DNA from: an uncultured delta proteobacterium
GTDB lineage: Bacteria; Desulfobacterota; RBG-13-43-22
Assembly (NCBI GenBank): GCA_963790475.1
Contig: CAWBOS010000012.1
Span: 192,001 to 256,000, forward strand
Reading direction: 5' to 3'
Length of the DNA: 64,000 nucleotides
The notes under the pieces were generated by a model. The model worked only from the letters and a program-made list of their open reading frames with translations. It was not told where the DNA came from and made no database searches. Below, in pieces: positions 577 to 20,880 of this stretch. The position numbers and the translations under genes were made by a program. Position 1 is the stretch's first letter. The number at the start of each line of letters is the position of its first letter.

Positions 577-861
577 ATGGGGGTTGCAGTAAGAAAGCCA
601 AAGATTCATCCCCATGTTTTTAGAATAAAAGATATTTGTGGCGGAAGAGATATCATAGCTGGAACAAGGATTCCCGTCTGGTCCATTATCAAATGGTACA
701 AGCTGGGTCTATCAGTTGAAGAAGTAATGAGAGAGTTTCCTCAGCTAACACCTTCTCAGGTCCACGATGCCTTTTCTTATTACTATGATAATCCTAAAGA
801 AATTGAAAAAGACATTGTGGAGAACGAAAATGAAGGTCTTCTGAGGGAGAGCATAGGTTGA
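577..861 (+). CDS. DUF433-domain antitoxin
   Basis: ICGG..IIAGTRIPV..I......G....E....FPQLT..QV.DA..YY; RBS AGGAGG upstream. Confidence 0.9.
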   Translation: MGVAVRKPKIHPHVFRIKDICGGRDIIAGTRIPVWSIIKWYKLGLSVEEVMREFPQLTPSQVHDAFSYYYDNPKEIEKDIVENENEGLLRESIG

Positions 862-1064
862 TCAAACTTTACCTCGATGAAGATGTTCCCGAGGCCGTTG
901 CTATGGCTTTGAAATTAAGAGGGTATGATGTCTTAACTACCAGAGAAGCTGATAAAAGGGGGCTTACCGATATTGCCCAACTGGAATATGCTTCTTCAGA
1001 AGAAAGAATTTTGATAACCCATAATATAGCCGATTTCTCTAAAAAGACTGAACGGACCAAATAG
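858..1064 (+). pseudogene. DUF5615 PIN-like toxin, 3'-truncated at the start of a repeat
   Basis: KLYLDEDVP...L..RGYDV.T......G..D..QL.YA....RILITHN.ADF; only 68 aa, and similarity stops where the 1050-1254 repeat begins. Confidence 0.8.
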
Positions 1065-1254
1065 ACAATAATTCCTTTGAGCCTTCTGCCTTGAACTTTC
1101 AGTTCTGAGATTTGGGTCTATAACATTGAACCTTGAACTTAGAACATAGAACTTATCCTTTTAGTTTTTTCTTTGAATTTTGTGAAGTTACATTCCCTTG
1201 CTTTTTAAGTAACTCCCCGGTCATTAGGCCGGTTGAAGTGATAGCTAAGCAAAC
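1050..1254. repeat. Modular intergenic repeat, copy 1 (9-mer/7-mer units plus ~80-bp core)
   Basis: Near-identical to 5904-6123 (GAACGGACCAAATAGAC...TTGTGAAGTT...GTTGAAGTGATAGCTRAGCAAAC). Confidence 0.9.
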
Positions 1255-1365
1255 AATTTTATTTCTTCGAACGAAAAATTTCCAAATTATGTTTAATAGG
1301 AAAATATTCCCCTTTTTCATTGGCTAATAAAATAGAATGATAAGAGAAAAGGTGGTATAATTGAA

Positions 1366-1650
1366 TTGAATATTCGTTATTATATCGATCAGGAAACAGG
1401 ACTCCCCCATATCTATGGACACGATGTTGAGGAAATTGAAGTGGAAGAAGTTCTTTCTAATCCGGGAGAAGATCGACCGGGTCGGGAGGGATCACGAGTT
1501 GCAGTTGGAAAGACATCAGACGGGCGTTTTCTTAGGGTGATTTATATTCCTGATCCAGAGCCAAGGAGTGTTTTTGTAATCACAGCATATGAACTTCGAG
1601 GCAAACCTTTAATCGCCTATCGTCGCCGTAGAAGGAGAAAGCAAAAATGA
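1366..1650 (+). CDS. DUF4258/BrnT-like toxin
   Basis: PHIY.H.V...EVEEVL..PGEDR.G.EGSRVA.G.T..GR.LRVIY.PD.....FVITAYEL.GK; extended -10 TGGTATAAT at 1353-1361. Confidence 0.8.
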   Translation: MNIRYYIDQETGLPHIYGHDVEEIEVEEVLSNPGEDRPGREGSRVAVGKTSDGRFLRVIYIPDPEPRSVFVITAYELRGKPLIAYRRRRRRKQK

Positions 1651-1847
1651 AAGCAAGTGGATTCCCACCAGGATGGGATGCTGAACGTGTGAAAAGGGTA
1701 TTAGCCCATTATGAATCCCAGTCTGAAGAGGAGGCTGTGGCTGAGGATGAGGCTGCATTCGAAGCTTTGGGACAGACCGTCATAGAAGTCCCAACAGAAA
1801 TTGTTCCGGCAATACGCGAGCTCATTGCAAAACACAAAGCAGCATGA
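1647..1847 (+). CDS. Putative antitoxin partner of DUF4258 toxin
   Basis: ATGA overlap with toxin; FPPGWD.ERV.RVL.HYE.Q.EEEAVAEDEAA family usually paired with DUF4258. Confidence 0.75.
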   Translation: MKASGFPPGWDAERVKRVLAHYESQSEEEAVAEDEAAFEALGQTVIEVPTEIVPAIRELIAKHKAA

Positions 1848-1851
1848 AATA

Positions 1852-1910
1852 GCCTATCAAGCGTCTGGAGTTATCCGTGCAAAAACGGCAATTCTGCCTT
1901 TTCGTTAAAT
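1852..1910 (+). other. Degenerate integron attC-like site
   Basis: 59 bp, GCCTATC (approx. RYYYAAC) ... GTTAAAT (GTTRRRY), internal CCGT/ACGG hairpin, 4 nt after the antitoxin stop. Confidence 0.5.
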
Positions 1911-2177
1911 AATAAGTATAAAAAAGGGAATAGATCGATAGGCTCATATAAAATTCGAATCGGCTAAGGAGAAAAATAAGTTGTTTTAGAACCAGCGTCC
2001 CATCCTATTACGCCTCCTGACTCCTAACTCGCCGAACGACGAACGCTCGACGCCTAACGTCCTTTCTCAAAACCCCTCCCGCCTCATTTCTCCCCTCACT
2101 TTGGTCTCTCCCCTATGATTTCGTCTCCGAACTCCGAACTTTTATAGCTTCCAGAAAAAAATCTTTCGAGAAATATA

Positions 2178-2206
2178 TTGACACTAAAGTGCCTTAGTGT
2201 TAAATT
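2178..2206 (+). promoter_or_regulatory. Sigma70 promoter with palindromic operator for vapBC
   Basis: TTGACA-17 nt-TAAATT; inverted repeat ACACTAA-6-TTAGTGT at 2181-2200. Confidence 0.8.
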
Positions 2207-2228
2207 TTACTTTAAAAGGAGACGAACC

Positions 2229-2507
2229 ATGAACCGTAATCAAACTTCCTCTGTCCGATTGAATATCTATCTTCCCGACAAGGCCACCCGACAGCGGATC
2301 AAGTTATTAGCCACCGAGCAGAATGTTACTCTTTCCCATTTTTGCCTTCGGGCCATCGAAGCCCAGCTTTCTGAGGCAGATAAAGAGAAACAAAGACCCC
2401 CATTAAGCAAGGCCGTGGATCGGGCACGGAAATTCCAACGACAGGCCTTCGGGGGACAGGTTTTTCAGGTCAATTCGGCTGATCTGATTCGCCAGTCTCG
2501 AAGGTAG
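2229..2507 (+). CDS. VapB-like (RHH) antitoxin
   Basis: RBS AAGGAG before ATG 2229; RLNIYLP..RQRIK..A.....TLS; SADLIRQSR C-terminus; directly upstream of PIN toxin. Confidence 0.75.
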   Translation: MNRNQTSSVRLNIYLPDKATRQRIKLLATEQNVTLSHFCLRAIEAQLSEADKEKQRPPLSKAVDRARKFQRQAFGGQVFQVNSADLIRQSRR

Positions 2508-2516
2508 GAAAACCGA

Positions 2517-2951
2517 ATGGAACAAAACGTGGTTATCGATGCCAGTCTGGCCGTCATGTGGGCCGTCCCGGAAAACTATTCCGCACGGGCTCTCCTGTTG
2601 GCCGAAACTTGGGATGAAGAGGAGACTCGTCTCTTGGCGCCCTGTCTGCTGTTGACCGAGGTAACCAATGCCCTTTACAAAAGGATTATCCGGAAGGAAA
2701 TGGATTTGCCTAAAGTCCGAGAGGCCCTGGAGGTGATACTGGCTTTCGGAATTGAGATTCTCGATGAGGCCGGCCTCCATACCCTGGCCATCGAGGTTGC
2801 CCTGCAACTGGGACAACAGGCTACCTATGACGCCCATTACCTGGCTTTGGCCCTAATGTACGACTGCCCTCTCTGGACCGGGGACCGACGATTTTATAAC
2901 TCGGCCAGGAAATCATTTCCCCAGGTTCATTGGGTTGGGGAAGGAGGGTAA
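2517..2951 (+). CDS. vapC: VapC PIN-domain toxin
   Basis: VVIDAS..V.W..PE, EVTNAL, YDAHYLALA, LWTGDRR. Confidence 0.9.
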   Translation: MEQNVVIDASLAVMWAVPENYSARALLLAETWDEEETRLLAPCLLLTEVTNALYKRIIRKEMDLPKVREALEVILAFGIEILDEAGLHTLAIEVALQLGQQATYDAHYLALALMYDCPLWTGDRRFYNSARKSFPQVHWVGEGG

Positions 2952-2998
2952 CCTATCAGCTATGAGCTCCTTTTTTTGCCTGTTCCGGCAAAAAAAGA

Positions 2999-3250
2999 TT
3001 GACTTCCCCCCTTTCCCCCCTTTATTTTCTTTGTATTATCTTAGTGTTTTAAACTTTTAGGGCTAAATTTCCTATTTTTTACTAAATGACGAACGAATTT
3101 TTTCTCCAAATCCCTTTGAGCTATGAGCTATCAGCTTTGAGCTCTGATTTCCGCTATGAGCTTTGAGCTCCCCAAATTGTAAAGTCAACATTTCCTTGCT
3201 TTTGAAGTAAGTCCCCGACCAAACGGCCTGTTAAATGGATAGCTGAACAG
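2999..3250. repeat. Modular intergenic repeat, partial copy (pyrimidine module, heptamers, core)
   Basis: 2999-3042 matches 5805-5846; 3158-3250 matches 6027-6122. Confidence 0.85.
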
Positions 3251-3270
3251 ATTTTTTTCAAAAATTAGTA

Positions 3271-3299
3271 TTGAGTATTTTAAAGTGTTAGTTTATAAT
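3271..3299 (+). promoter_or_regulatory. Sigma70 promoter giving probable leaderless mRNA
   Basis: TTGAGT-17 nt-TATAAT, ATG 7 nt downstream, no SD. Confidence 0.65.
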
Positions 3300-3306
3300 T
3301 CTCAAC

Positions 3307-4476
3307 ATGAAATATATTTCCAGACAGATAGAAACCGAGCTCACAAAGGCCTCAAAGAGTTTTTCTGCGGTTATTCTCACCGGACCTCGGAGGGCGGGGA
3401 AGACGACTCTACTTAGAAAACTCTTCCCCCAAGCGGCCTATTATCTGATTGAAGACCCTGATGTAATCGCCCGGCTGCAGAGCGATCCGCGTTCCTTTCT
3501 GGACGACATTCGCTGCCCGGCCATCCTGGATGAAATCCAGAACGTCCCTGAGTTGCTGAGTTATGTACGTTCCCGAATCGATCGTTCTCCGAACAAAAAG
3601 GGACAGTGGTTTTTAACCGGATCACAAGAAGCGCCGCTGATGAGAGGCGTTACGGAATCCTTGGCGGGCAGGGCCGCCCTTTTTACCCTTCTGCCGTTTT
3701 CCCAGCAGGAATCACCGAAGGTTTCGTTACTCAAAGGCGGGTTCCCGGAAGTCCTGGCACGCCCTTCGGCCGGGTCTATCTGGTTTCGCTCCTATGTCCA
3801 AACCTATCTCGAAAGGGATGTCCGATCGGTGACCTCCATCCGTAACCTTTCGACCTTCAGGCGATTCCTTGCACTGGTAGCCAGCCGTTGTGGGCAGATC
3901 TTAAACCGTACCGACCTGGCCGCTCCCTTGGGAGTTTCCGTTCCGACGATCTCTGATTGGCTGAATATCCTGGAGATAACCGGACAGATCATCTTAGTTC
4001 CGCCTTTTTTTGAGAATTTCGGGAAAAGGCTGATTAAGTCACCCAAATTGTACTTTGTGGATTCCGGCTTGGTCTGTCACCTGTTGGGGGTTGAATCAGA
4101 GAAGGGATTGGATCAATCCCCTTTTCTTGGGCCTCTTTTTGAAGGGTTTGTGGCTGCAGAGATACTCAAACAACAAATGGCCTCCGGACGACCCAGGGCA
4201 CTCTATTATTTCCGCGACCAGCAGGGATTGGAGGTCGATTTTATAGTTCCGGCCGGGGACCAGAGGCTTCTTTTTATTGAAACCAAGGCTTCCCGGACCG
4301 TTGTCCCGGCCATGGCCAAACCGATGGAACGCCTGGCCGAAGCAAAAACAAACTATAGGATAACTAAGGCCCTCATTCATCGCGAAGGTAGAGACCAGTT
4401 CCCAACCACGGCCTTAAAAAGCGGAGTGAAGGCCCTGCCGGTGAGTCGTTTGGGGTCTCTCCTGGATGGGAAGTGA
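3307..4476 (+). CDS. AAA_14 ATPase with DUF4143 (COG1373)
   Basis: GPRRAGKTT, ILDEIQ, LTGSQ, ESLAGR, YLERDV, KSPKLYFVDSG, EVDF..IETK. Confidence 0.92.
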   Translation: MKYISRQIETELTKASKSFSAVILTGPRRAGKTTLLRKLFPQAAYYLIEDPDVIARLQSDPRSFLDDIRCPAILDEIQNVPELLSYVRSRIDRSPNKKGQWFLTGSQEAPLMRGVTESLAGRAALFTLLPFSQQESPKVSLLKGGFPEVLARPSAGSIWFRSYVQTYLERDVRSVTSIRNLSTFRRFLALVASRCGQILNRTDLAAPLGVSVPTISDWLNILEITGQIILVPPFFENFGKRLIKSPKLYFVDSGLVCHLLGVESEKGLDQSPFLGPLFEGFVAAEILKQQMASGRPRALYYFRDQQGLEVDFIVPAGDQRLLFIETKASRTVVPAMAKPMERLAEAKTNYRITKALIHREGRDQFPTTALKSGVKALPVSRLGSLLDGK

Positions 4477-4740
4477 GCCGTCTTTCATAAAGAAGAACCC
4501 GTTGATTTGTCGATAATGCTCATCTCTTCCCCCATTATCTTAGGCATTTCAATTTTGAGATTTAAGCATCTTTTTATTCAGAAACCGTTGATTTGTTGAT
4601 AATGCGCAAAGGAGGGAAAAGGCAAAAAAATCTCTTTTATTTCGCTGGCCTTCATTGAGCAAGGTGGGGCATGCCTTCTTGGATAGATAAATGAATGACC
4701 CAAATTAGTTGTTTCTTTGGAAGAGATTCAAAGTCCTGGC

Positions 4741-5202
4741 CTATGCCTGGCCACGTTTACCGCTGACGGTTCTCTCCTTGTGCGGGATGGAGTATTTCTC
4801 CACAAACTCTTTTGGCGAAAGGATGGGGATACTTCTGTAAGTTTTCAAATTCAATAGATGCGGATCGCCGGAGACAACACACTCCACACTTTCATCCGCA
4901 GCACAAGCCAGTACAAAGTCATCATCACGGTCTGGACTAACCGCGTTTGGCGCAGGGACTCCCGGGGTGAGGATGGCAAATGCGCGTAGAAAGTCAAGGA
5001 GAATTTCGGAGTTTTCGGCGGCTTTAGGATATTTGCGAGTAATGTGTCGACGCAAAATGACCTTGCTGAATTCTTCAAGCAAGTGTGCGGATGTGACCAG
5101 TTTGATTTCTTGACGTTGGGCGGCATCCAAAATGGAAGCAGAATATCCAGAGGCAATGATCCCGCTGATCAAAACATTGGTATCAAGAACGACTTTTCGC
5201 AT
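4741..5202 (-). CDS. PIN_3 family toxin (TIGR00305-like)
   Basis: VVLDTNVLISG, D.DDDFVLACA, VVSGD.HLL. Confidence 0.9.
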   Translation of the reverse strand: MRKVVLDTNVLISGIIASGYSASILDAAQRQEIKLVTSAHLLEEFSKVILRRHITRKYPKAAENSEILLDFLRAFAILTPGVPAPNAVSPDRDDDFVLACAADESVECVVSGDPHLLNLKTYRSIPILSPKEFVEKYSIPHKERTVSGKRGQA

Positions 5203-5440
5203 GACTCGTCTTGCGCACCTGGTGCGTTGCTTTGATTGCGTCTTTCATCACTTCTTCTTCGCTGACATGAATGTAGGTTTTGCGAATGGAATTGATCGAA
5301 GATGCGAATCTTAGGGCAATGGCAGGACGGTCGAGATCTTTATCCAAAAGGCGCCAGAGGGCTATTTTCTCCTGTGGCGGCAGTTGGCGCAGAGCCTTTT
5401 TAATTTGATCAAGCGGTAAATCCAATCGGAGGGTGTTCAT
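5183..5440 (-). CDS. Putative antitoxin of PIN_3 toxin
   Basis: Small ORF overlapping toxin start; SEEEV..DAI.A...VR C-terminus. Confidence 0.7.
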   Translation of the reverse strand: MNTLRLDLPLDQIKKALRQLPPQEKIALWRLLDKDLDRPAIALRFASSINSIRKTYIHVSEEEVMKDAIKATHQVRKTSHAKSRS

Positions 5441-5746
5441 TTTCGGTCTCCTTCACGGCATCCAAGCATGTTACCCCGATTAATCAGGCTAAAAACTTTC
5501 AACGCGTTCAATTATTTCAAGACTTAGACAATAAGGTTCTTTATTAAAATAGTATAAGATAAGGAAAAGAAGTGGTCAAGGAGAAATCCAGTCGCCTCTT
5601 CTCCTTTTTTCTGGCTGGTCCGGTTAGTGCCTTTCGCCTCCTGCCTCTTGCCACTCCCCTTACTCTATCCCCCATGCCCTATGCGTCTTGGAGCCCCCTC
5701 ACCCCTCAAGCCTCGTGCCTCGTGCCTCATGCCTCATGCCTTTTAT

Positions 5747-6123
5747 TCGCCGAACGACGAACACTCCTGCCGATCGCAGGCGCCAAACGTTTTTGCCTTT
5801 TTTCTTGACATTCCCCCTTTTCCCCTTTATTTTCTTTATATTATCTTGGGCTATTTGTTTAGGGCTTCTTTTAAACCCAATCAACCCGATCGACCAGATA
5901 GATTGAACGGACCAAATAGACCAAATAGACAATAATTCCTTTGAGCCCTCTGCCTTGAACTTTCAGTTCTGAGATTTGGGCCTTAAACATTGAACCTTGA
6001 ACTCTGAACCTTGAACCTTTTCCCTTTGAGCTTTGAGCTCCCCAAATTGTGAAGTTAACATTTCCTTGCTTTTGAAGTAAGTTATCCGGCTAAACGGCCC
6101 GTTGAAGTGATAGCTGAGCAAAC
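5747..6123. repeat. Modular intergenic repeat, most complete copy
   Basis: Contains modules also seen at 2029-2059, 2999-3042, 1050-1254 and 3158-3250. Confidence 0.9.
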
Positions 6124-6181: not shown

Positions 6182-7044
6182 ATGGTTAAGGCTAGAAATT
6201 TGGAAACACCAATAAAAAATAAAGTTGGCCATACTTATACACGAGCAAAGGTCCCAATCCGTTACCCGGGAGGGAAACAGCGTTTTCTGGACCAGATTGT
6301 TGTCCACATGCCCAAGCCTGAGGAAATAGAAGGTCGCTTTGTGGAGCCATTTCTTGGAGGAGGGGCCGTTTTTTTTGCTATTCAGGCTAAACCCGCTATA
6401 CTAAATGACAAGAACCCAGATTTGATCGATCTATACCGCGGCATCCGCCATGCCCCTTTGATGGTTTGGAAGATGTTCTGCAGTATCCCCCCGACGAGGG
6501 TACCTACTATCAAGTGAGGCAAGAAGATACGAAGGGTTGGGGTGTAATTGACAAGGCAGCCCGAACGCTTTATCTGAATCGCACATGCTTCAAAGGAATG
6601 TGGCGGCAGAACTCACGTGGTATGTTTAACATCGGGTATGGAGGCCAGAGCAGGCGATGGGCTATCACGGAGGATGACCTCATCGCCGTGTCAAAGGCGC
6701 TACGAGGCACAACTCTGCATTGCACTGATTTCGAAGATATTGTCGACGACACGAAGCCAAATGACTTGCTTTTTGTAGACCCTCCATATCACCCCGGTCG
6801 GCGCGAATCCCGGGTGGAACACTATATGTTCTCCCAGTTTACGTTTGAATCCCACAGACGTCTTGCCTATTCATTGAAAAGAGCCACACGTCGGGGAGTT
6901 AAATGGGCGATGACGACATCATCACATCCGGATATAGTAGCCTTTCATAAAAAACAGCGTCAAATACCCTTCAAAGCGGGAGTGGGGGCAGCCCCAGGCA
7001 ACATAACGAGAGAAGCGGGCGAAGTTTTAATATTGAACTACTGA
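6182..7044 (+). CDS. Dam-family (D12 class) N6-adenine DNA methyltransferase, frameshift near 6490
   Basis: RYPGGK, FVEPFLGGGAVF, LND.N.DLI, YLNRTCF.G, VDPPY across two overlapping ORFs. Confidence 0.88.
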
Positions 7045-7055
7045 AGAGGTGGCAG

Positions 7056-9081
7056 ATGAAGCAGTTTTTCGAAACGGCAGCCATGCAAAATCATCCTCTG
7101 CGTATTCTAAAGACTTTCATGGAACGCGAGGACGCCAACGAGAAAGCCAAAAAATACGAGGATATGCGTTTCGTCGGCTATGTTCTCGATATCGGCTATG
7201 ACACTCTCACTATTATCACATCTGACCCTTTCAAGATTGCCGTCGGGGGGATTCCTCGCAATTCCCTTTTGATCATGGCATCAGCGAAGATAGACTCGCT
7301 CCCTCCGCATTTCACACTGCTCAGGGTTCTCGAATCGGCTCCGACACCGCTGTCACAAGAGGTGCAACAAACCTATTTTGAACTGCAAAAAAAGTCTATG
7401 CCAGAACTGGATGTGTTCACTCAGAGCGAACTTCAGTGGGGGGCCCTTAAGACTGCCGTCTTGGGTATGTTCTATCCCCATCCCGAGAAACTTAACGAGG
7501 TGGAATTTTCTGGTGACCTGAACAACTTCGTCAGCGCCCACAAATACCGTGTCTACGCGCCTTGCGACGATCTACTAAATCTTATTGTTAATACCCTTGT
7601 TCGCTCTGAAGGCCAATTCAAAATCGGCAACCTTCGGCTCACTGAGTGCCGCCTACCGTTACCCGGAAAGCCGGGCCCAAGGGTTGATGTCAACGTCTCG
7701 ACTGTCGACTTCACAGGATGTCGGACCGCTATGTTCGGTAAAACTCGCCTGGGCAAGAGTAACGTCGTGAAGCTGATCGCCCAAAGCCTCATCGAGACCC
7801 AATCCAATGTCGGTCAACTTATTTTTGACATAAATGGGGAATACGCCAACGACAACCCTCAGGACAACAACCGCTCCATAGCAAGCGCCTACCGCTCCCG
7901 CTGTGAGGTCTATGCGCTTACAGCAAAGGCCGCAACACCTTCTCGTCCATTGAAACTCAATTTTTACGAATGTCCTGAGAGTTCACTCCCAATATTGGGT
8001 AGCTTATTGCGTCAACATGGACGTCAGTCTGGCTATATACAGAGCTTTGCCAGTGTTGAATTACCATCCATACAGGAAATTAACGATTTGCCAGTTGGCA
8101 ATGACAAAATAAGGTCGATACGCAAACTTCAGATGTATTGGGCGGTTCTAAAGAAAGCTGGTTTTGATGTAGATCAAATGCGATTGCGCAGAGCGGCTCC
8201 ATCCAGCGGGCGCACAAATGGTTTTAATCCTGCTTTCAGTGCCCAACTCAGAACAGATGCGTATCAGCACGCAGGCACCCAGTTATTAGCGAACATAAAC
8301 ACTCTCGACGATCTCGTCGGAGAACTTGAAGTGATTAGTAGGTTTCGCCGAGACAATTCTACCAGTCCATCACTCACGACTGGAAGCAACAACCCGGTGT
8401 TTCAACCTGACGATGTGGCAATACTGGAGTTTCTTGAGCCAGCACCTGGTCGTTCCGGTACAACGATGATCCAGCCATTTCGAATATACCACGACCGGTC
8501 TGCCGGCGACTTCGTCACAGAGGTACTGGCTTATCTAGACGAAGGGAAAACAGTCATCCTCGACCTCGGTAACGCGAATCCAGAGGTCATGCAATACTTT
8601 TCTGACGAATTATCAAGGGCCGTTTTCAATCATCAAGTAGACAAGTTCAGCAACAACAAACTGGGAAATCATTTCATCCAACTTTACTTCGAGGAGGCCC
8701 ACAACCTTTTTCCTCGAAATGAGGATGTGACTACCATTTACAGCCGCTTTGCCAAAGAGGGAGCGAAGTATCACATCGGTATGGTCTACTCCACCCAGTC
8801 CCCTACTACTATAAACAAGGACCTCCTAGCTCAGACAGAAAACTTCTTCATAGCTCACTTATCATCGCGAGACGAGGTTGCCGCACTGGGCAGACTCAAT
8901 GTCGCTTACGACAGCATGCAAGATGACATTCTGTCCGCAAAGACACCAGGCTATATACGCATGCTAACGCGATCTCATAGGTTTGTCGTGCCAGTCCAGG
9001 TCCTTCTGTTCACTCCACCAAAATCAACCACAGGAGAAAAACGCGGCCGCCCCAGCTGCAGTTTTAAGAGGAAAACGCTGA
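7056..9081 (+). CDS. herA: HerA/DUF87 ATPase
   Basis: N-terminal HAS-barrel-like region, GKTRLGKS, IFDINGEY, YFEEAH, STQ; likely true stop is TGA 9079-9081 overlapping the nurA ATG. Confidence 0.85.
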
Positions 9082-10390
9082 TGCCATTTCAGGCAGGCAG
9101 ACGACTACCCGGCGAGAGGGCGAGCAAGATCGGCCACCTTGAGGTGCTGAAAAACCCGCTTGTCCAGAATCTCTGTAAGCAACTCATTGACATCCAGCCT
9201 GACCTTGCCATTCTTGGCGGTCTATGGCAGATATCTCAGATTGAAGAAAAACCTCTCTCCGTTGTCTTTAGCGTAGATGGTTCCTATCAAGTCATCACCA
9301 AAGAAACACCGCCTTACAGTGCTAGAGCCTTCATAAAGACAACTTACTACGCCTCGACCAGCATGCTTTGAATAGAATCGATCACGACGATCCACACCCT
9401 TTTGCTCTTCGAGACATTCTTAGCGATAGTGCCATGCATCACGCTACCGTTTTCCCCCTTCGTCACGTCGAAGTCGCCGGCAAAAATCTTTATGACGCAG
9501 TTCGCGAAATCATCTATATGTCCCTAAAGGAAGATGCTATCCTGGAGTCTCAACCCTATGAGACATTGAAGTGGATCGTTTATAAGAAATGGAATCCAGG
9601 ATTACTAAGCCATATTCCTGACTTTGAATGTCCCCACTGCCAGTGGGGACACGCCACGCTTCCTTATGATGCCGACACCGGCAATTGCCCCAAATGTGGC
9701 AAAGAGATATTGTTGACTGATATGCTAGGTTTCCATCAGGAAATGGCCCCAGATTCAGCTCCCGACACGGTTGCGTCCTCCTATATGGCGATTCATGAAA
9801 CATTAATGCTTTTCACTGGAATCCGGTACTTTTGGGAAGGAAATCGTAATATTCTCAGAAACTGTCTCTTCATTAAGGATGGCCCCTTGTCAATCCGCGC
9901 TCAGTACTCCAAACTTGTTGGCCCTATCCGCCAATTCATTGAATATGCCAGCGCTGCAGGATGCCCCATTCACATCATCGGCCAGGAGAAATCTGGCAGA
10001 TTCTGGGATCATCTATCGCTTATCCGGAATCACGCCCCCTACCCTGCCTATTTTATTCCCGATGATGCCTATATCAAGCAGTGCATCCAACACCGCCCGA
10101 ACCAAGGGTCTCCCTACGGTTTAGACACGAACTATGGCGCAAAGATCTTTCTTAAGCTCAATCCATATCATTCCATGGTCATCAACATCCCCACCGGACC
10201 TCACAAGCCGAATCCCACATGCGGGGACCTCATCGGCTTCGATCGTATATTATCAACTCTCCCGTCGCTTCTCAGCAACCGCTACGAAGGCGCCTTGGTG
10301 CCAGTCGAAATGGCCAACGGAGTAGCGTCACTCTCGACGTACCCATCAGCTAAAATACTCAATATGTTTGCAGAGCGAATGAACGATTGA
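9081..10390 (+). CDS. nurA: NurA-family nuclease with Zn-ribbon, frameshift near 9340
   Basis: Starts MPFQAG..LPGERASKIGHL; VDGS, IKDGPL, IIGQEKSG, PVE.AN..AS; frames join as AFIKT..LLRLDQHALNRID. Confidence 0.82.
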
Positions 10391-10733
10391 CTGCGATGCT
10401 GTCTCAGATAGATGATAAACGTAAAGAGTCTTATTCGATGCATTGATGCCATTACCGCAAGCGCGGGGCCTTAGAAGCCTCAATGAAGATGTTCGGGGAT
10501 TGAAGTATAATGGAGGGTGGGATCATCCGAATGGATTGAAGTCACGGAGTGATTTTATGTTCCAACTTGATGAAGAGAAAGCAGGACTGATTGACAAATA
10601 TTTAATTATATGATAACCATCATTGCCAAATAAAAATAATTCATCTAACTTTTTTTCTAAACGAAGTTATTTAATTTAATACATAAAAATAGGGATGTTA
10701 AACGGTAAAGATCTTCTTAGGTAGATAACATAT

Positions 10734-12046
10734 ATGAGAATCCGAGATGCGATTAGCGGAGATATTGTTCTTGACGATCTCCAGGAATACTGTGTTCGTC
10801 AACCTACCTTTCAACGACTGCATCGGATAAAGCAACTAGGCAACACCTTTCATGTCTATCCCACAGCGACGCACACCCGCTTTGAACACTCACTTGGCGT
10901 TTGTCATCAAATAAAGAGGTTACTATCTCAGCTAGATTTTTTTCCAAAAGATTATAAACTTCAACCTCCAGAATCTAATAAACTTATCGAATTGGCTGGC
11001 TTACTTCATGATATAATACACACTCCTTTTAAACACACATTGGATCGTGACTCAGGGGTTCTCCAGAACCAACCTTAAGGGATGAATATCTAAGCTGAGA
11101 TTTGACCAAATGCAACTTGAAAAAATCTTGTCAACTGATGACGTCAGAATTTCTCTTAAATATTTTATCAACTGAGAATTCATTCGACTTAGAAAAGCCG
11201 TATCTAAGACAAATCATCGAAGATACAATCTCTGCAGATCTTTTGGATTATAGCCGAAGAGATGCTTATTTTACCAGTGGCTGGGGCCGACAATGGGATG
11301 ACAGGTTATATGACCATATTGCCGTTGCGCTATGTAACTTTAAACCATGCCTTGTTGCAAGAATTTCATTTGCCAATGAAAAAGTAACCAGCGCGATAAC
11401 TGAACTGATAAATCTTTTTCAAATAAGGTATATGCTTAACGAACGCGTTTATTTTTACCCAACTAAAATTGCCGCTGACGCTTTATTGGTGAAAAGTGTA
11501 CGTTGTCTGATTAAAGATGAGGAACCTGAGATCTTTCAAAAAAAGATAAAGGATTTTTCGGACGAGGAATTAATTAATTTTCTCATCGCAAATACACCAC
11601 CAGAGATCCCAAATTATGCCCAATTATTAAAAGATCGTAATTTACCAGGCCTAGCGGAAAGTTTTGCTCTTTCAGATCTTCCACAGCCTCAAATAGAGAA
11701 TGTATCTTTGTGTTGTCGTGGCCATAATCGGCTAGTAGATTGGCAAAGATGTGAGGATGCAATTGCTGAAAAAGCTGGCGTCAGTTCTGACAAAATAATT
11801 GTTTATTGCCATGATATTGCGATGCAGAAGAAGAAACCTGATTTTTTAGTCCAAGCCAGTCGTGACTCTGAGCCATATCCTGTAGCAAAATATGAAGCTA
11901 TGATGGGTGAAATCGAAAATATCGCCAAAAAACACGAGAATCTTTGGCGTTGTTATGTCTTTTCCATGGACAGATCTCCAAATATAATTGACAAAGTGAA
12001 GCTATCGGCTAAAAACGTCCTTATGGCTCTTAAGCCAAACAAATAA
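10734..12046 (+). CDS. HD-domain phosphohydrolase (COG1078/SAMHD1-like), frameshifted near 11075-11120
   Basis: FQRL.RIKQLG....VYP.A.HTRFEHSLGV, AGLLHDI.H.PF.H, ADLLDY..RD, R......VY. Confidence 0.85.
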
Positions 12047-12076
12047 GGGAACTCTCTTGATAACGGGAGGTATCCA

Positions 12077-12523
12077 ATGGAAGTAAATATTCCTAGCTCA
12101 TTAACAACTATTCGATTTTTAGAGCTTACCCTTCTGGCCCTCGCAGCAGTCGGGGCTTGCGGGGCTGCTCTATTCACTTGGAGAGCCGCAAGAGCGACCG
12201 CCAAAGCTAATAGAGGACAAACAATACTAATGTGCTTGGATAAGTATATTTCCATAATGAGAGACAAAAGCGAAGCTATCAAAGCAAAAGAGGAACGGCT
12301 TGCTAAAGATTTTTATCGGGAATTATTTGACCTTCATTGGAGTGAATTTCATCTTTGGCACGAAGGAGCAATTCCAAATTCCGTAATGAGTCCCTGGATA
12401 AACAGTCAGGAGCAAAAAACTTTAATTAGGAATGATATAGAACGTAGGTCAAAGAAGGAAACAATATTCAAATTTCTTATGCAAGTAGTTGGAGCGAACT
12501 TAAAGGCGAGATATTTTCAATGA
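12077..12523 (+). CDS. Hypothetical protein with N-terminal TM helix (3' end may be frameshifted)
   Basis: RBS GGGAGG; hydrophobic LTLLALAAVGACGAALFTW followed by a helical domain. Confidence 0.6.
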   Translation: MEVNIPSSLTTIRFLELTLLALAAVGACGAALFTWRAARATAKANRGQTILMCLDKYISIMRDKSEAIKAKEERLAKDFYRELFDLHWSEFHLWHEGAIPNSVMSPWINSQEQKTLIRNDIERRSKKETIFKFLMQVVGANLKARYFQ

Positions 12524-12617
12524 AACTGATTTTTTGTTAATTTCACTGGACACAATCCATATTCGGAAGACATTGTGAATATAAGAAAACTTAAAAGAAA
12601 GACTAAAAGGAATAAAG

Positions 12618-14847
12618 ATGTATGATTACAAAATACATGCTGCACCGCTTTTTTATAGCCGATCAGAATTCGCAATGTGTCTCGAGTTAATTCATTACTT
12701 CTTGCAACTCCCCCTAATGTCGCACTATCACTTCTTGCTCACTAACCACGCAAGGCACATCTCTGCAAGAGCACAACAATCCTCCCAAACTGAATGTTCC
12801 AACAACACATCCATATTCAATTCCACTACACCCTGCCCATGCAAATATTGTGCATACTCAACTCACCCTATGTAGATTGAGCATATTGCTTGAAAATGGG
12901 ATATGCTTTTGTCATACAAACCTATTCTAACATATCAGAAGTGATTTGCTACATCCCTGAACATAATGGGGTCAATCTAATGATTGCTAAAGCTGTTCTC
13001 ATTAATGCTGTGGTTACCCACAAACCAAATCAAAGCTGGAATAAAAACTCCCCATTTATGATTATTATTAGATTAAAAACAAATCTTCCTTCACAAATTT
13101 TTTATTCTTCTTTTACTATTATTTTCGTTTTATAGAATTATTCTGAAGCATCTGATGGTGTTTCATAATGATGAAAAAGCTAAGATAAACAATTATCATT
13201 ATTTAGGTACATACCTTTCAGGATTAATACCTCTCAACTTTAGCACAATCATCAGCAGATTTCAAGCATGTTCCTCTTCACAACACAAAGTACAATATTT
13301 TCCAAGAAACATGAAGTTCATTGCTGGAACTCAACTTGCTAAATTATTGGGAAGAGCTTTACATCATTTCATCATCCATCTTCTATCAAATGCATAGAAT
13401 GAACGGAAAAAGCAATTCGGATCCTTGAAGAAGAATGGAATCATTTGAAAAATATTTTCCATTAATAATCAAAATTATCATGATATCTTGATCGAGGCCT
13501 TTGATCATATTCTCATGAATGCTCTATCAACATATGAGAAACGAAACAACCCCACCGTATATTCATTTTAAGACGACTTTCGATAATTTTATTCGAACCG
13601 GACGAGTTCACTGCGTAGAAGAGACAAGTAGGTGATTTGATAATTCATTTTAAGCTTGATCCCTTGCAGTCTGAAAAACTATCACACTTCTCAAAGTCAT
13701 AGATTTTTACAACTATATACATCCTATTATGTTGCCATCAAGCATCTATGCACCAGGCTTCCCTTTACTTGCCTATTTTCTTTTTGGATCGTTCTTTTGA
13801 GTATAACGGAAAGAAACGATGAACGAATTCAATGGGAGTGAGGGAAATTCGAAGTTGGAATGAGAAGGAAAGGGATAAGAATGATTGGAAATAAAACATA
13901 CTTTTTGTCTGAACATGTAATGTACGAAATGTTATCGATTATCTACCGATTTTGCAAAAAAATATTAATGGCTGTAGCGATTAAATTAATAGGATCTATT
14001 TTTTAATCAAATAAAATAAGGACAACATCATCATTGATTTTGAAATAGCGGGTCGTCTTATCCACTATATCCTCATCATATACAATCTTCGCTGATTTCT
14101 TTATCAAACGCTGCCGGGAGAAGAAGTTGGCGGTGCCAGAAAACAACCTGATAGGATATTTTTTTTATTAAGAACGAATTCCAATCTTTTAATGAATCGG
14201 AGTCACCTTCGTTTTATTACCTTAAATAAAAATATAGAAATTCCCCTTCTACAATTCGATATCACAAAAAGAAGACAGGGAACTACTTTGATTAACAATA
14301 TTCTTTAAAAAGTCATATGGAATATATACCCGCCCGACTTCTTCCTATTCATAACTGCCAATATGATAGGCATATCAAAACTTATGATCAACGAATTACT
14401 TTTAAAAAGATGCAGTTGAAGGAGTTTTCAACCTTCTGGATATGCTCCTTGTTTTATCCATTCATCATTATTAAAATCATCCATAGAGGGCTGTTTTTTC
14501 AAGTCTCTCTATACAATATTTCTATAACCAAAAATAAATAGTCACGTTTTCTCAAGGAGATAAAATATCTGTAAAAAGGGTACATTGGGAAGTAATAGGA
14601 TCCAACTGATGAATTAAAAGTAATGCTTCACTTCCAGCTCAACGAGTTGAACGGCTTACGTAATATAAATATTAAATATGATGCTCAGAGGACATTTCTG
14701 GTTAATAGAGTTATAGGTAAAGTAATAGAAGTTGATGATAGGAGTATTAAGATCAAGCTCCCTTCAAAGCACTTAGGCGCGGTGTTACTCATTGTGATTT
14801 CCTCAATAAAAAGAAAACCTCGAATTCTATGGGTGAATTTCGTCTAA
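12618..14847 (+). pseudogene. AT-rich, heavily disrupted coding region of unknown product
   Basis: Short protein-like fragments in alternating + frames, e.g. EKAIRILEEEWNHLKNIF, HDILIEAFDHILMNALS. Confidence 0.35.
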
Positions 14848-14848
14848 T

Positions 14849-15405
14849 TTAGGAGTACAGGCACGTAGCGATTAAATTGGGGGAAGGAAACTTCAAATTC
14901 ATATTTTGGATTATTTTCTCTGCTTTCCTTAAAATTTTCTCATCTACCTTAAAATTATTACCATCTTTTAATAGTAAAAGATTTATCTTGTCGATTCACT
15001 CCTTCGTGAATTGATCTTATTAATAGTGCAAACCTTCCTCATCACATCAATTAACCCAATGAAATTTACTTGAGTTATCTGGTACGTTACACTCTTCCAA
15101 TCTTATTGTAATTTTAAAAAATTATTATCTTCTAATTTTTCGACTTCCAAATATTTAGGGTGAGCTTATTTCTTTTTGTAGGAAATCCCTCTTTTATTGG
15201 GAAAATTAGATAGGCAAATAAGAGAAGTCAGATTGTTTAATTGCTTTCCAGATAACTGGCTCCCATAGTTCACCTGGAAGAATATCTTTTTGTTCATCCC
15301 AGGCTTAAAAGTATGGCTTTTTATTTAGCAAAAAGTCAATACAACCTCGACTCTGTCTATATCTTCGGAGGCATAACTTAGAAAGATCCTTATATTTTCA
15401 TCCAT
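14849..15405 (-). pseudogene. TIR-domain (TIR_2-like) protein with multiple frameshifts
   Basis: Manual translation: MDENIRIFLSYASEDIDRV...KDILPGELWEPVIWKAIKQSDF...QKEI...IRLEECNVPD...KFHWVN. Confidence 0.8.
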
Positions 15406-15458
15406 TTTATTAAACCGAGTGTTGCTGGCAAAGAAGGGAACCCGATAGTGATTTATTA

Positions 15459-16433
15459 TTATTTCACACTCTTTGTATTTTCAAACCTGAACTTACTGGC
15501 CTTTAAATATTCTTCTATACTTTCCATCGCAATCCATCGTCTATTCAAACTTTCAGCAGTAGCCCCGGTGGTGTTTGACCCGGCAAAAGGATCAAGCACC
15601 ACATCATATTCATCAGAAAGCAATTTGATAAAAAATTCAGGTAAAACAGCAGGAAATCTGGCAGGGTGGATCTTTATCCCGGCCTCTTTGCATTTGATGG
15701 TATAAGGGTCATTGGCTGCATTATTACCGAATCTGAGCAGGTCCGGGGCGGTTTCATCCTCAAAAAAGTTGGCGGGAATAGAGCCGCCGGCGTCAACCTT
15801 ATCAAAGGTTGATCTAATGTTGTGACCGGATGGACGGACGGTTGCGCGGACACCCCGTTGATTTAACCGCATCATGTCCTTGCTGTAAGGCTTCAGCACG
15901 TTCCGGTTATTTGCCTTTGGCCAGGGGGTTTTGGAAAACCACCAGACATACTCCACTGAATCTTTGATGCGAATCCGGCGTACCGTTACCCATTCGGCCG
16001 GCATGGGCATTTTGGCGGGGTTATACCAGAAACATTCCTGCGCCAAATGGAAGCCAACCTCTTCAACAAGGGCAATCAGCAGCTTGAAGTGGTATATGGA
16101 CCGGGTAGGCTCCCCCCGGTTATAGCTTCCTCCTATATTCAGAACAAAGCTTCCATCCTCCCGGAGTATCCTTAAAATCTCCTTTGCAAAGGGGATAAAC
16201 CATGATACATAATCAGATTTTGATACGTTTCCATACTCTTTTTTGAAGTGAAGGGCATAAGGAGGGGAAGTAATCACCATATTGATAGAACCGTCCGGAA
16301 TCCGCCTCATTATCTCTAAGGAATCGCCCCAATAGGCGGCCCCGAAATCGGTTGCATAATAGGGCTTGATATCTGCAATCAGTTCGCGGAAATTTTGCTT
16401 CCTAGCCAAATGATTGAAAATGGAAGTTTGCAT
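15459..16433 (-). CDS. Beta-class N4-cytosine/N6-adenine DNA methyltransferase (M.PvuII-like)
   Basis: [24 protein letters not shown]. Confidence 0.92.
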
Positions 16434-16497
16434 ATGGTCCTCTTTATTTATATTAACACAAAAAACGACAAGATAAAAATATCATATTGGGTTTACA

Positions 16498-16716
16498 TTG
16501 TCAACCAATTTAATTCAAAAAAATATTGACCTCTCCCAGTGGGTATCACAGGCGGAGGCGGCCAGACTGAGGGGCGTTACACGTCAGGCGATTGCCAAGC
16601 TGTGTAGAAAAGGTAAATTAAAAACTCTGGAAATGGGGGATATTCGTTCGTCAACAAGCAGGAAATCCTTGAATTCAAGGATGGGCCGGCGGGCGTCCAA
16701 GAACAAAACATGGTGA
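16498..16716 (+). CDS. Small HTH DNA-binding protein (possible R-M controller), 3' frameshift
   Basis: WVSQAEAARLRGVTRQAI.KL...GKL; divergent from MTase, overlaps REase start. Confidence 0.7.
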   Translation: MSTNLIQKNIDLSQWVSQAEAARLRGVTRQAIAKLCRKGKLKTLEMGDIRSSTSRKSLNSRMGRRASKNKTW

Positions 16717-18744: not shown

Positions 18745-19418
18745 CTAATCTCCTGAGGGGTAAAAGAGACTTGCCGGCTTCAGCTTCTCCTGGAAGGAAG
18801 GCAACTTCCAGCATATCTTAGGTTCCACGAATAAGGCTTTATAGCCTTCCATATAAATATAAAACAATTTCGAACCGGGGGTATCCCCGGCGTTTCCCCA
18901 AAAAAGCATAAAATAAACCAGGACAGCAAAAATCATAAGAACCGAGACCGGGCCGGAGGTGAGTATTCGAATGACTCCATTTTTCTTCTTGTCACGCCAT
19001 CTCCAGAATAATTCGCCAAGGCAAAGAGACAAGAGCTGGAAGCACGAAAAGTCCTACCGGTGCCGGGCCGAGGGCGTAATAAAAGGATTCGCCCCAGGTA
19101 AAGAAGGCGCTGACCCGCCAGATTTCTTTTAAAGTCCAGGCCAGGGGCACTATTAAAGCCCAAAAAATTCTTTCTATGGTGGAAGCGCCCCGAACATACA
19201 GGAGGCTATAGACAATCAGGCTGCTGAAGATGAGGGTAAAACCCAGCATCGAGTAGAGGATGTCGGCCGCAGTCCGATAGACCTGACCGCTGCCAAACCA
19301 CTCCAGATGGCTGGTCAGAAAATTCAGCACCACCCAGACCCCCAGGGCGATTCCCACCGGTAAGAGCACCCTTCGGCTGAAGGGCTGTCTTTCCTTCTTC
19401 TCTGCTGATCTCAGCCAT
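18745..19418 (-). CDS. Integral membrane protein (frameshifted)
   Basis: Hydrophobic helices across ORFs 18992-19369 and 18745-19032; coupled to sulfatase stop. Confidence 0.6.
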
Positions 19419-20880
19419 TGGCCTTCCTCCTTAAATATTCTTTCATTAAGGCCTGCAATTCCGGAAGGACTTTCTGGCCTTCCGGTGTGGAGATGAGGTT
19501 GTGCATGGTGCGGGGATCTTTTTGGATATCGAAAAGCTCTGCTGGTTTATTATTCCGATATTCCACATAAAGAAAACGGTCGGTTCTCACCGCATCCCAC
19601 TCGGGAACACTGTAGGGAAAATCTTTGAAGTATTCCAGATGGACGGAAGAGCGATGAGAGAAATTATTATTGCCCAATAAAATGGGCACTAAACTCATGC
19701 CCTGCATGGTCCCCGGAGACCTGCAAGCCCGGCCAGGTCCAGGAGTGTCGGCGCCATATCGATACTGAGGGCCAATTCTCCGCTGGTTCTTCCGGGATTT
19801 TTTATTTTTGCCGGATAACGCACGATAAGGGGAATTCGCGTCGCCTCTTCATAGGGGAATCTTTTGTCGATCAATTGTTTTTCACCCCAGAAATATCCGT
19901 TGTCGCTGGTATAAACAACAATGGTATTTTCGGCGATCCCCAAGCGTTCCAACTCGGACAGGACCCGTCCGATCTGCTGGTCCATGGCCGTAATGACCCG
20001 GTGGTAATCCAGGTATTTTTCCCCCACACTGCCTATCACGCCGTAATAGCCACTCCCTTCTTTGCGATTAATCCAGGAATGGTACTCGGGAGGAAGGGTG
20101 CGGCTCACATCGGCATCCTTATAGAGATTTTTTAGTTCGTGAGGCGGGGTAAAGGGCTGGTGCGGGGCCTTGTGGGCCAGATAAACACAGAAGGGACCTT
20201 CCTTTTCCTTGCGGATAAAGTCCAGGGCCAGATCCGTTAAATCCTCGGTCAGGTATTTCCCCTTTCTTTCCGTAACGACCCCATCGATGATCAAAGGACA
20301 GTCAAAATAAATCCCCTGCCCACCGGAAGCGGTAAAGGTAACGAATCGATCGACGGCCTTTCCCAAAAGATTCGGCAGTCTGCCGGGCATATGCCATTTG
20401 CCGAAAAAGGCATTTTTATATCCGGCCTTCTTGAGAAGCTCCAAAAAGGTGACATTCTTATCATTCCAGGGCGTATAATTATTTTTTACGCCGTGGCGAT
20501 GGGCGTATTGGCCGGTCAGGAAACATCCCCGCGAAGGGCTGCATAAAGGGGTCGCGGCAAAGGTGTTGGTGAATTTTACCCCTTCTTTGGCCAACCGATC
20601 GAGATGTGGGGGTTTTGATAAAGGGATGCCCGGTGTTGCCCATGGTATCGGCCCGATGGTCGTCGGAAAGGATAAAGACAATGTTCGGTTTCTTTTCCGG
20701 GATTGGCCCTTTTCCCGCCCCCAAAACCCGGGAGACCAGGCCGAAGTCGGTCGCCCCAACCGCCAGAGCGCCCCCGATGATCTTGAGTGTTTGGCGTCTG
20801 GAGACCTGGTGATCGGAAAATTTGAAGTTCCCCAATAGGAATTTCGTTCTCTCCTTGTGAAGGCTCATTTTCACGCCCAT
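19411..20880 (-). CDS. Tat-exported Cys-type sulfatase (frameshifts near 20605 and 19715)
   Basis: SRRQTLK Tat signal, KPNIVFILSDDH, CSPSR, GKWH, SDNG. Confidence 0.88.

Follow-up and report, generated by a model that had tools for sequence, protein, structure and literature searches.

A mobile cassette of a Dam-family methylase, a HerA-like ATPase and a predicted NurA-fold nuclease as an apparent methylation-guided relative of TdpABC

TdpABC is a phosphorothioate-based restriction-modification (R-M) system of thermophiles that combines a modifying enzyme (TdpC) with a HerA-like hexameric ATPase (TdpA) and a NurA-fold nuclease (TdpB). The phosphorothioate mark reportedly blocks both translocation and cleavage by TdpAB on self DNA. 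Structures of TdpAB are available (PDB 8wet, 8wfd, 8y1k), with titles that describe the complex bound to AMPPNP and DNA. According to the relevant passages of one source, which also classes TdpABC as phosphorothioate-based R-M, tdpC alone writes the mark, with the consensus G(ps)ATC (PMC12914056). An uncultured delta proteobacterium harbors a cassette of similar composition: in a 64,000-nucleotide stretch of its genome (here called the window; GenBank assembly GCA_963790475.1, contig CAWBOS010000012.1, positions 192,001 to 256,000), three tightly packed plus-strand genes at positions 6182-10390 encode a D12/Dam-family methylase, a HerA-like ATPase and a nuclease whose predicted fold is that of NurA. 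The cassette looks like a methylation-guided relative of TdpABC and not like a system unrelated to those already known, because its motor and nuclease are closest to TdpA and TdpB. Judged from comparative analysis, it is probably a self-contained, mobile, R-M-like defence system, in which methylation would mark self DNA and the HerA/NurA pair would destroy unmarked DNA. The three genes are, in window positions:

6182..7044, plus strand: D12/Dam-family N6-adenine DNA methyltransferase; open reading frames (ORFs) 6182-6517 and 6466-7044 as assembled, with PF02086 on both
7056..~9081, plus strand: HerA-like hexameric ATPase/translocase; PF01935, the ORF continuing to 9371 as assembled
9081..10390, plus strand: nuclease of predicted NurA fold with an inserted Cys4 zinc ribbon, TdpB-like; two frames as assembled, 9081-9341 and 9344-10390

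ORF calling over the cassette yields 6182-6517, 6466-7044, 7056-9371 and 9368-10390, and the gene boundaries of a first-pass annotation, made from the sequence alone, agree with these ORFs. The 11-nt gap that it placed between the methylase and HerA genes is present (7045-7055), and the motifs that it quoted (the methylase stretch YLNRTCFKGMWRQNSRGMFNIGYG, DPPY and EGAK) all occur in the translations. The TGATG overlap that it suspected at the next junction lies at 9079-9083; its TGA terminates only the +1 frame, which is open from 8968. The window copy has kept its catalytic motifs: motif I and DPPY in the methylase, Walker A and B in the ATPase, and DGS, E, KDGPL and QEKSG in the nuclease.

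Like TdpABC, the cassette joins a modifying enzyme to a HerA-like hexameric ATPase and a NurA-fold nuclease, with the TdpA-like ATPase and the TdpB-like nuclease encoded side by side; the likeness to TdpB is structural only. The modifier, however, is a D12 adenine methylase, whereas that of Tdp is a phosphorothioation enzyme of the PAPS-reductase type (TdpC), and the PAPS_reduct family has no match among the 66 window ORFs scanned. The gene order also differs, being modifier-ATPase-nuclease in the cassette and modifier-nuclease-ATPase in Tdp. Finally, the cassette nuclease carries a Cys4 zinc ribbon, in contrast to a TdpB-like protein that has 0 cysteines, and the ATPase has EGAK in place of EGRK. 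The motifs on which the following comparisons draw are:

6571..6645, plus strand: DNA-contact hairpin region of the methylase, YLNRTCFKGMWRQNSRGMFNIGYGG, which aligns with FNGL..R.N...FNVP.G of DpnM and Dam
6778..6789, plus strand: catalytic DPPY of the methylase, read in the sequence and conserved in the clade alignment
7734..7763, plus strand: Walker A of HerA, FGKTRLGKSN, with G228, K229, T230, R231, G233, K234, S235 and N236 invariant in two alignments
8757..8768, plus strand: EGAK motif of HerA (EGRK in TdpA), with E568, G569, A570 and K571 invariant in the clade alignment
9629..9697, plus strand: zinc ribbon of the nuclease, two CxxC pairs at residues 88 and 107 of the 9368 ORF (185 and 204 in the numbering of L006, an intact homologue)

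The ATPase belongs to the HerA/FtsK-type hexameric ATPases by its DUF87/HerA central domain (PF01935, E 9.6e-12) together with Walker A and B, and over residues 1-654 it is 85% identical to intact homologues of ~670 amino acids. TdpA is its closest solved protein both by profile (E 1.3e-32, the next at 1.7e-13) and by predicted structure (Foldseek E 3.4e-26, the second-ranked HerA standing at 5.8e-18; the model has a predicted local distance difference test score, pLDDT, of 75.2). Within the clade, Walker A (GKTRLGKS) and Walker B (FEEAHN) are invariant. A helical insert of ~220 residues, at about 277-495, is not alignable to TdpA. The first-pass annotation had noticed EGAK where EGRK is usual; the difference is real, but it is clade-wide and not a defect. 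In a wider alignment this position is A, G or S in 10/10 non-Tdp relatives, and R only in the TdpA-like protein. The arginine of EGRK, which we take to be an arginine finger, is thus missing, and its role may be taken over by R564, six residues upstream of the EGAK position, which is at least 90% conserved and kept in all relatives aligned. Prediction of a complex between HerA residues 1-225 and the nuclease supports binding without showing it: the score is 0.67, against 0.00 for the best of 3 controls, and a mark of 0.67 is reached by 58/80 solved complexes and by 2/110 mismatched pairs. Runs agree in at least 0% of contacts, with a partner pLDDT of at least 80. Because HerA-NurA and TdpAB complexes are already solved, this pass may reflect mere likeness. 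The predicted interface would use the conserved N-terminal helix of HerA (residues 1-16).

The third protein is recognizable by fold and not by sequence family. Its window frames are 70% and 82% identical to the intact 435-amino-acid protein of L006, while searches of Pfam, NCBIfam and PADLOC with ORF 9368-10390 give nothing beyond weak zinc-ribbon matches. Comparison with NurA by hmmsearch stays below 8 bits in both directions, and profile searches of solved structures give nothing significant, TdpB appearing once, at E 0.68; similarity to TdpB in sequence (E 0.68 and 3.8) is not significant. An ESM Atlas feature search leads to clusters with the label NurA (score 0.96), which 14-29% of their members bear; this is a lead only. 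The AlphaFold2 model of the L006 nuclease, built on a 78-sequence alignment, has a pLDDT of 94.7 and a predicted TM-score (pTM) of 0.92. With this model Foldseek places TdpB first (E 3.7e-9), followed by the NurAs of Pyrococcus, Thermococcus, Sulfolobus and Deinococcus, the best 11 ranks being all TdpB or NurA. In VIA-align the model matches TdpB with Z 20.8 (root mean square deviation 4.4 A, 317 residues aligned), S. solfataricus NurA with Z 15.4 (4.8 A, 251 aligned) and other NurAs with Z 12.9, 12.8, 11.4 and down to 10.3; the next folds, Argonaute PIWI and EndoV, reach Z 8.5 at most. The predicted model therefore confirms a NurA (RNase H-like) fold, and the NurA identity that had been assigned on first inspection stands by predicted fold, with TdpB closest, although not by hidden Markov model (HMM). 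A link to annotated NurAs runs through the nuclease of a sister clade described below, which also has the zinc ribbon and is annotated as NurA. The two align over their full length (hhalign probability 99.94%, E 3.9e-37, 420 columns), and homologues from sister clades reach the PF09376 (NurA) cut-off of 21, with 21.0 bits in L106 and 22 bits in L118. Among the relatives listed for the L118 nuclease, 81/120 have precomputed PF09376, and the NCBI name is NurA. In an alignment of 78 family members, conservation is at least 90% at D67-G68, E241 and D268-G269, the putative catalytic residues, and also at E304-K305. The first three sites are found in the window copy as well; hhalign pairs E...DGPL of the nuclease with E...DGSL of archaeal NurA, at low probability. 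Of the four zinc-ribbon cysteines, C185, C204 and C207 never vary in the clade alignment, and conservation of C188 is at least 90%.

The methylase is a member of the Dam family: family HMMs score above cut-off, and both the S-adenosylmethionine (SAM) motif FVEPFLGGGAVFF and DPPY are present. PF02086 (253 positions) is divided over the two halves, with profile positions 1-62 and 82-232, and an intact homologue (L006:5144-5989) scores 190.1 bits on TIGR00571 'dam' (cut-off 114.85). The closest solved structures are DpnM (2dpm, E 4.1e-36) and E. coli Dam (E 2.5e-21), then T4 Dam. The cassette thus shares its methylase family with DpnII and Dam but not its restriction partner, which is an ATP-driven ring translocase with a NurA-fold nuclease and not a small endonuclease of the PD-(D/E)XK type. 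The hairpin region is at least 80% conserved over 75 cassettes and is among the best conserved parts of the methylase, which suggests one fixed specificity. Such conservation is consistent with a single fixed mark that a highly conserved motor reads. DpnM, E. coli Dam and T4 Dam are all GATC enzymes. From these relatives GATC may be guessed as the recognition motif; it can only be a guess because several hairpin residues differ from those of DpnM and Dam.

The three genes are strictly linked. HerA relatives were sought in one genome per species (185,579 species), which gave 172 confirmed cases, and neighbour genes were called by tblastn with window pieces in the best 80 loci. In 79/80 the methylase immediately precedes HerA (the sole miss offers 153 nt of sequence before HerA), and in 75/80 the nuclease immediately follows HerA; four of the five nuclease misses end in or at the HerA gene, at contig ends, and the fifth is a degraded copy (L044). 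The neighbourhood survey called for by the first-pass annotation thus finds the methylase adjoining HerA almost throughout. Identity to the window ranges over 58-87% for HerA, 52-82% for the main part of the nuclease and 31-80% for the methylase pieces. Flanks vary, and a search around the 80 loci finds no recurrent flank family, the largest occurring in 6/80. In the second part of the same survey, run with PADLOC on 150/441 flanking ORFs from the first 23 loci in list order, a known defence gene (E <= 1e-15) occurs within 4.5 kb in 8/23, the methylase fragment of L013's own cassette not being counted. The matches comprise type I and IIG R-M, Kiwa, SoFic, an HNH enzyme, RecD-like/Cas4-like/CapP, mad3 and a HEAT-ARM model, and the expected defence context of the relatives is borne out in that sample.

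The cassette is clearly horizontally mobile. Among 70 intact HerAs, the 63 with a label carry 21 phylum labels, archaea included, and on a quick tree of the 70 the phylum label must change 33 times, where 20 changes would be the minimum. Thirteen genomes of the same genus as the window host give no match better than E 1.2e-13. Intact copies occur in two cultured hosts, Meiothermus hypogaeus DSM 23238 and Aeribacillus pallidus NRS-2058. The complete trio is found on 4 of 2.9 million viral contigs, which indicates that the cassette is not mainly phage-borne. In the temperate Vibrio phage PQ189353 (1-5751), a HerA-like gene in two ORFs and a nuclease homologue (E 4e-29) lie right after the integrase, and a D12 methylase is encoded on the opposite strand. 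The locus looks like a form of the cassette carried by a prophage.

Beyond this clade, the HerA/nuclease pair is accompanied by other modification enzymes. A HerA search of 60 further genomes from the order to which the Meiothermus host belongs gave four relatives (L115-L118). In L116, HerA and the nuclease homologue precede a D12 methylase, whereas in L117 and L118 a PF01555 methylase takes its place, L118 standing beside BrxC/D, a DEAD helicase and TerB. L115 has the tdpC-B-A layout: a protein with a PAPS-reductase domain (PF01507), a 375-amino-acid protein and HerA. A haloarchaeal plasmid (L123) carries DUF87, the nuclease homologue and a DNA methyltransferase. The sister clade, which also takes in L117, L118 and L123, was recovered by scanning metagenomes with its nuclease (413 stretches confirmed, 80 loci kept as L125-L204). 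Local HMMs served to call the neighbours in these loci, that of the methylase being based on five sequences, four of them PF01555 members according to Pfam. A beta-class (N6_N4-type) methylase directly follows the nuclease in 74/80 of these loci, and the other six have no more than 203 nt of DNA beyond the nuclease; HerA directly precedes the nuclease in 69/80, and the other 11 have no more than 260 nt of DNA before it. Linkage is as strict as in the window cassette, with 74/74 loci that have enough downstream DNA. On a HerA tree of 37 rows (16 of clade A, 14 of the 80 sister-clade loci and 7 others, with the split Vibrio HerA and a Calothrix plasmid left out), the five module types require 4 changes, the minimum possible, and the beta-methylase group forms one side of a branch with support 98/95. 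The modification enzyme is thus interchangeable around a homologous HerA/nuclease pair. Two methylase classes and a phosphorothioation enzyme swapping around one pair are the pattern expected if any covalent mark of self suffices. As a separate observation, a Nostoc plasmid locus of this wider family carries an AbiTii-domain protein (E 2e-42) after its helix-turn-helix, DUF87 and NurA genes.

In the proposed mechanism, the Dam-family methylase would mark host DNA at one conserved motif. The HerA-like ring ATPase would load on double-stranded DNA and pump it, and the NurA-fold nuclease, presumably docked to HerA in a complex, would degrade DNA that lacks the mark, including that of phages or plasmids. 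On self DNA the methyl mark would block loading, translocation or cleavage. Candidates for reading the methyl group are the zinc ribbon inserted in the nuclease and the helical stretch of ~220 residues inserted in the ATPase. The first-pass annotation had likewise proposed that the methylase marks self; the comparative tests are all favourable to it (linkage, varied flanks, a nuclease with no PADLOC model, and the fold), but the window copy itself is frameshifted. More tentatively, and with somewhat less than an even chance, the cassette may be a branch of a large, unnamed superfamily of restriction systems built on ring translocases, in which a motor and nuclease of the HerA/NurA type are joined to any writer of a self mark (D12 methylases, beta-class N6/N4 methylases or the Tdp phosphorothioation enzyme), the methylase branches reading a base methyl while the duplex is threaded, perhaps via the zinc ribbon. 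If so, methyl reading by a threading ring translocase would be a form of self/non-self discrimination undescribed for any restriction system, and it would raise the mechanistic question of how a ring translocase that grips the backbone senses a methyl on the base. If the cassette works as proposed, HerA/NurA restriction would be widespread and not a thermophile curiosity tied to phosphorothioate DNA, extending to at least 172 species and 21 phylum labels in this clade and to 413 confirmed metagenome stretches in the sister clade. Its high conservation makes it attractive for structural work. The genes are currently annotated as 'ATP-binding protein', 'DUF87' or 'hypothetical protein', and the defence model sets of 2023 miss the cassette.

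Several described systems share parts of this architecture. In SIR2-HerA (Nezha) and DUF4297-HerA, which are also structural matches, a HerA hexamer serves as an effector platform in phage defence. The cassette differs from them in its effector, a NurA-fold nuclease without a PADLOC match, and in having a modification gene, and the PADLOC 'HerA' matches to cassette-type ATPases are weak (best E 2.5e-18, C-terminal part only). According to the matching passages of two sources, DndFGH and 'HerA/FtsK capture' systems use a HerA/FtsK pump to feed invader DNA to a nuclease (PMC10853773; PMC12839542), but their architectures comprise DndH fusions, Orc/Cdc6, D5 helicase and PglZ. Those passages contain no trio of D12 methylase, HerA and NurA, and 'NurA' is absent from the main text of PMC10853773. 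A table in a 2026 review gives DUF4297-HerA and Sir2-HerA as the only HerA-based systems (PMC12948488). None of the five nuclease partners tested, that of the sister clade included, is covered by a model in PADLOC-DB 2.0.0 (2023), and full-text literature searches, supplements and subscription papers aside, find no description of a D12-methylase/HerA/NurA defence system. The first-pass annotation did not recognise the trio as a named system, and none is named for it in that database or the literature found, but a characterised relative, TdpABC, does exist.

Several observations weigh against the reading of the cassette as a methylation-guided restriction system. Nostoc and Tolypothrix plasmids (L106, L124) carry helix-turn-helix, DUF87 and NurA genes with no methylase in the annotated flanks of 5-6 kb on each side, which shows that the pair can exist without a linked modification gene. 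PF09376 does not reach its threshold on the window pieces or on 4 intact homologues, and at E <= 10 it matches 0/37 clade members, while hhalign against 20 archaeal NurAs gives probabilities of 2.3% and 3.7%, and of 18.8% in another comparison. A base methyl lies in the major groove and not on the backbone, so that the sensing mode of Tdp is not simply transferable. Frame lesions are also dense in the window copy, with 3 in 4.2 kb of cassette against 5 split genes in the other ~60 kb. Last, an operon of related composition has been assigned a role in DNA donation, not in defence (PMC5365140, as far as the relevant passages go). This operon, on the Thermus thermophilus element ICEth1, comprises Tth111II, the NurA-like TTC1878 (377 amino acids), TdtA (TTC1879, 568 amino acids) and the PF01555 methylase TTC1880 (PMC5365140), and in the same passages DNA donation, termed 'transjugation', is lost or strongly reduced when TdtA or the NurA-like gene is knocked out (PMC5365140; PMC7767461).

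By analogy, the cassette could be DNA-processing or export machinery of a mobile element, with the methylase protecting or marking the transferred DNA. Both combine a nuclease like NurA with an ATPase of the HerA family and a DNA methylase; those passages describe the ICEth1 genes as co-transcribed on a mobile element, and the cassette is itself clearly mobile. Nevertheless, this explanation is improbable. In ICEth1, which is compared here by description only, the nuclease precedes the ATPase, the methylase is downstream and of another class, and a type IIG enzyme and an integrase accompany the trio; gene order and protein sizes are nearer to TdpB/TdpA than to the cassette clade. A type IIG enzyme and an integrase are absent beside the trio in the window and not recurrent in the 80 loci. 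No relaxase travels with it either, no flank family exceeds 6/80 loci, and the closest solved relatives come from a restriction system. HerA-NurA pairs resect DNA ends in archaea and Deinococcus, and the cassette proteins have the same two folds, encoded by adjacent genes (NurA Z 15.4 to 10.3, HerA Foldseek E ~1e-17). Housekeeping resection of double-strand breaks beside an orphan Dam methylase is nonetheless very unlikely. The first-pass annotation had remarked on the missing mre11/rad50, and indeed the Pfam scan of the 66 window ORFs finds no family of the Mre11/Rad50 type. In contrast to the resection pairs, the cassette is mobile and sporadic (172 relatives in 185,579 species genomes, no good match in the 13 genomes of the same genus), it combines a scrambled phylogeny with strict methylase linkage, its clade remains below the PF09376 threshold with the zinc ribbon as an insert, and its nuclease is closer to TdpB than to canonical NurAs. 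A defence or addiction module in which the methylase is an epigenetic regulator or antitoxin-like, and HerA-NurA is triggered by some other infection cue, would be in keeping with SIR2-HerA and DUF4297-HerA, which lack a modification gene, and with the methylase-less clade of cyanobacterial plasmids. Only a small probability is given to it, since two methylase classes and a phosphorothioation enzyme swap around one pair and TdpAB are the closest relatives.

Whether the window copy works as a restriction system depends on whether its frameshifts are assembly errors. Each of the three genes is interrupted by one single-base frameshift as assembled, on which the first-pass annotation was silent. 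The lesions were located by tblastn comparison with the intact cassette of L006 (a Phycisphaerae metagenome-assembled genome), a cassette 74-85% identical to that of the window:

6479..6492, plus strand: methylase frameshift, one base missing, at 6479-6480 or in the C6 run 6487-6492; the frame switches with no residues lost relative to L006
9013..9078, plus strand: loss of the HerA frame, one extra base, with the A5 run 9037-9041 as candidate site; homology ends at ~residue 654
9342..9345, plus strand: nuclease frameshift, one base missing; the switch lies between ...AFIKT and LLRLDQ..., by comparison with the intact homologue

As a consequence the HerA ORF lacks a stop where one is expected and takes in, in the same frame, the 87 opening codons of the third gene, while the +1 frame, open from 8968, stops at the TGA at 9079-9081. 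We lean towards mis-assembly at the three positions, recent inactivation being a real but lesser prospect. The cassette in this genome could then be a dead remnant and not a working system, an explanation that is possible though not favoured. The higher density of lesions in the trio than in the rest of the window leaves room for real decay, and lesions also occur in 6/80 other loci, mostly one each (L007, L033, L036 and L075, with several in L044 and an uncertain case in L028). Conversely, there are no in-frame stops, all catalytic residues are kept and identity to intact relatives is 82-85%. Homopolymers are candidate sites for two of the three lesions (C6, A5), and a TT doublet marks the position of the third. 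Elsewhere in the window, no fewer than five ordinary genes are split in like manner: a sulfatase (19411-20759), DUF362 (21209-22103), an HD-domain gene (10734-12046), a short-chain dehydrogenase (37076-37892) and NamZ (48802-49969). Together, the homopolymer sites and the similarly split genes point to indel errors of assembly, although these ordinary genes may reflect either such errors or real lesions, as in a genome with many pseudogenes. A search of sequencing runs for the window returned two runs only, holding 5-6% of its words. Tail-overlapping ORF pairs on the same strand, used as a proxy for frameshifts, do not discriminate, with 11.9 per 100 kb in this genome and 14.3 in the 80 comparison loci. 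As to the form of damage in other copies, the nuclease is displaced by ~1.4 kb and truncated in L075 (8000-9400) and short in L033, HerA is truncated in L007 and L044, and the methylase is split in L036 and L044.

The first-pass annotation placed the cassette in a defence island, for which the surroundings give moderate support: PDC-S01, a second type II methylase, a weak dGTPase-like match and PIN-domain genes lie nearby. Upstream, a cluster of small genes resembling toxin-antitoxin modules (577-5440) contains DUF433 (577-861), DUF4258 (1366-1650) and two PIN-domain genes (2517-2951 and 4741-5202), each with an adjacent small ORF. The AAA_14/DUF4143 ATPase at 3307-4476 matches the PADLOC candidate system PDC-S01 (E 1.2e-103). 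Just upstream of the cassette, short tandem repeats (5704-5741, 5910-5930, 5981-6039) consist of CCTCATG x5.4, GACCAAATA x2.3, CCTTGAA x5.6 and CTTTGAG x2.3. The HD-domain gene directly downstream, at 10734-12046, is read as HD and then HD_assoc_2 ORFs and has a weak PADLOC dGTPase match (E 6.6e-7). A low-GC stretch (10000-16500; 36-40% against ~48-53% elsewhere) holds many short ORFs without a Pfam match and ends with an intact PF01555 type II methylase (15459-16433, PADLOC E 3.5e-110) that has no recognisable endonuclease adjacent. Promoter-like and terminator-like sites are not enriched (9 against 7.0 in shuffles, and 4 against 4.8), and no tRNA gene that could mark an integration site occurs in the window. 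Further away, a Bro-N domain protein of a phage-associated family (39908-40768) is found among metabolic genes.

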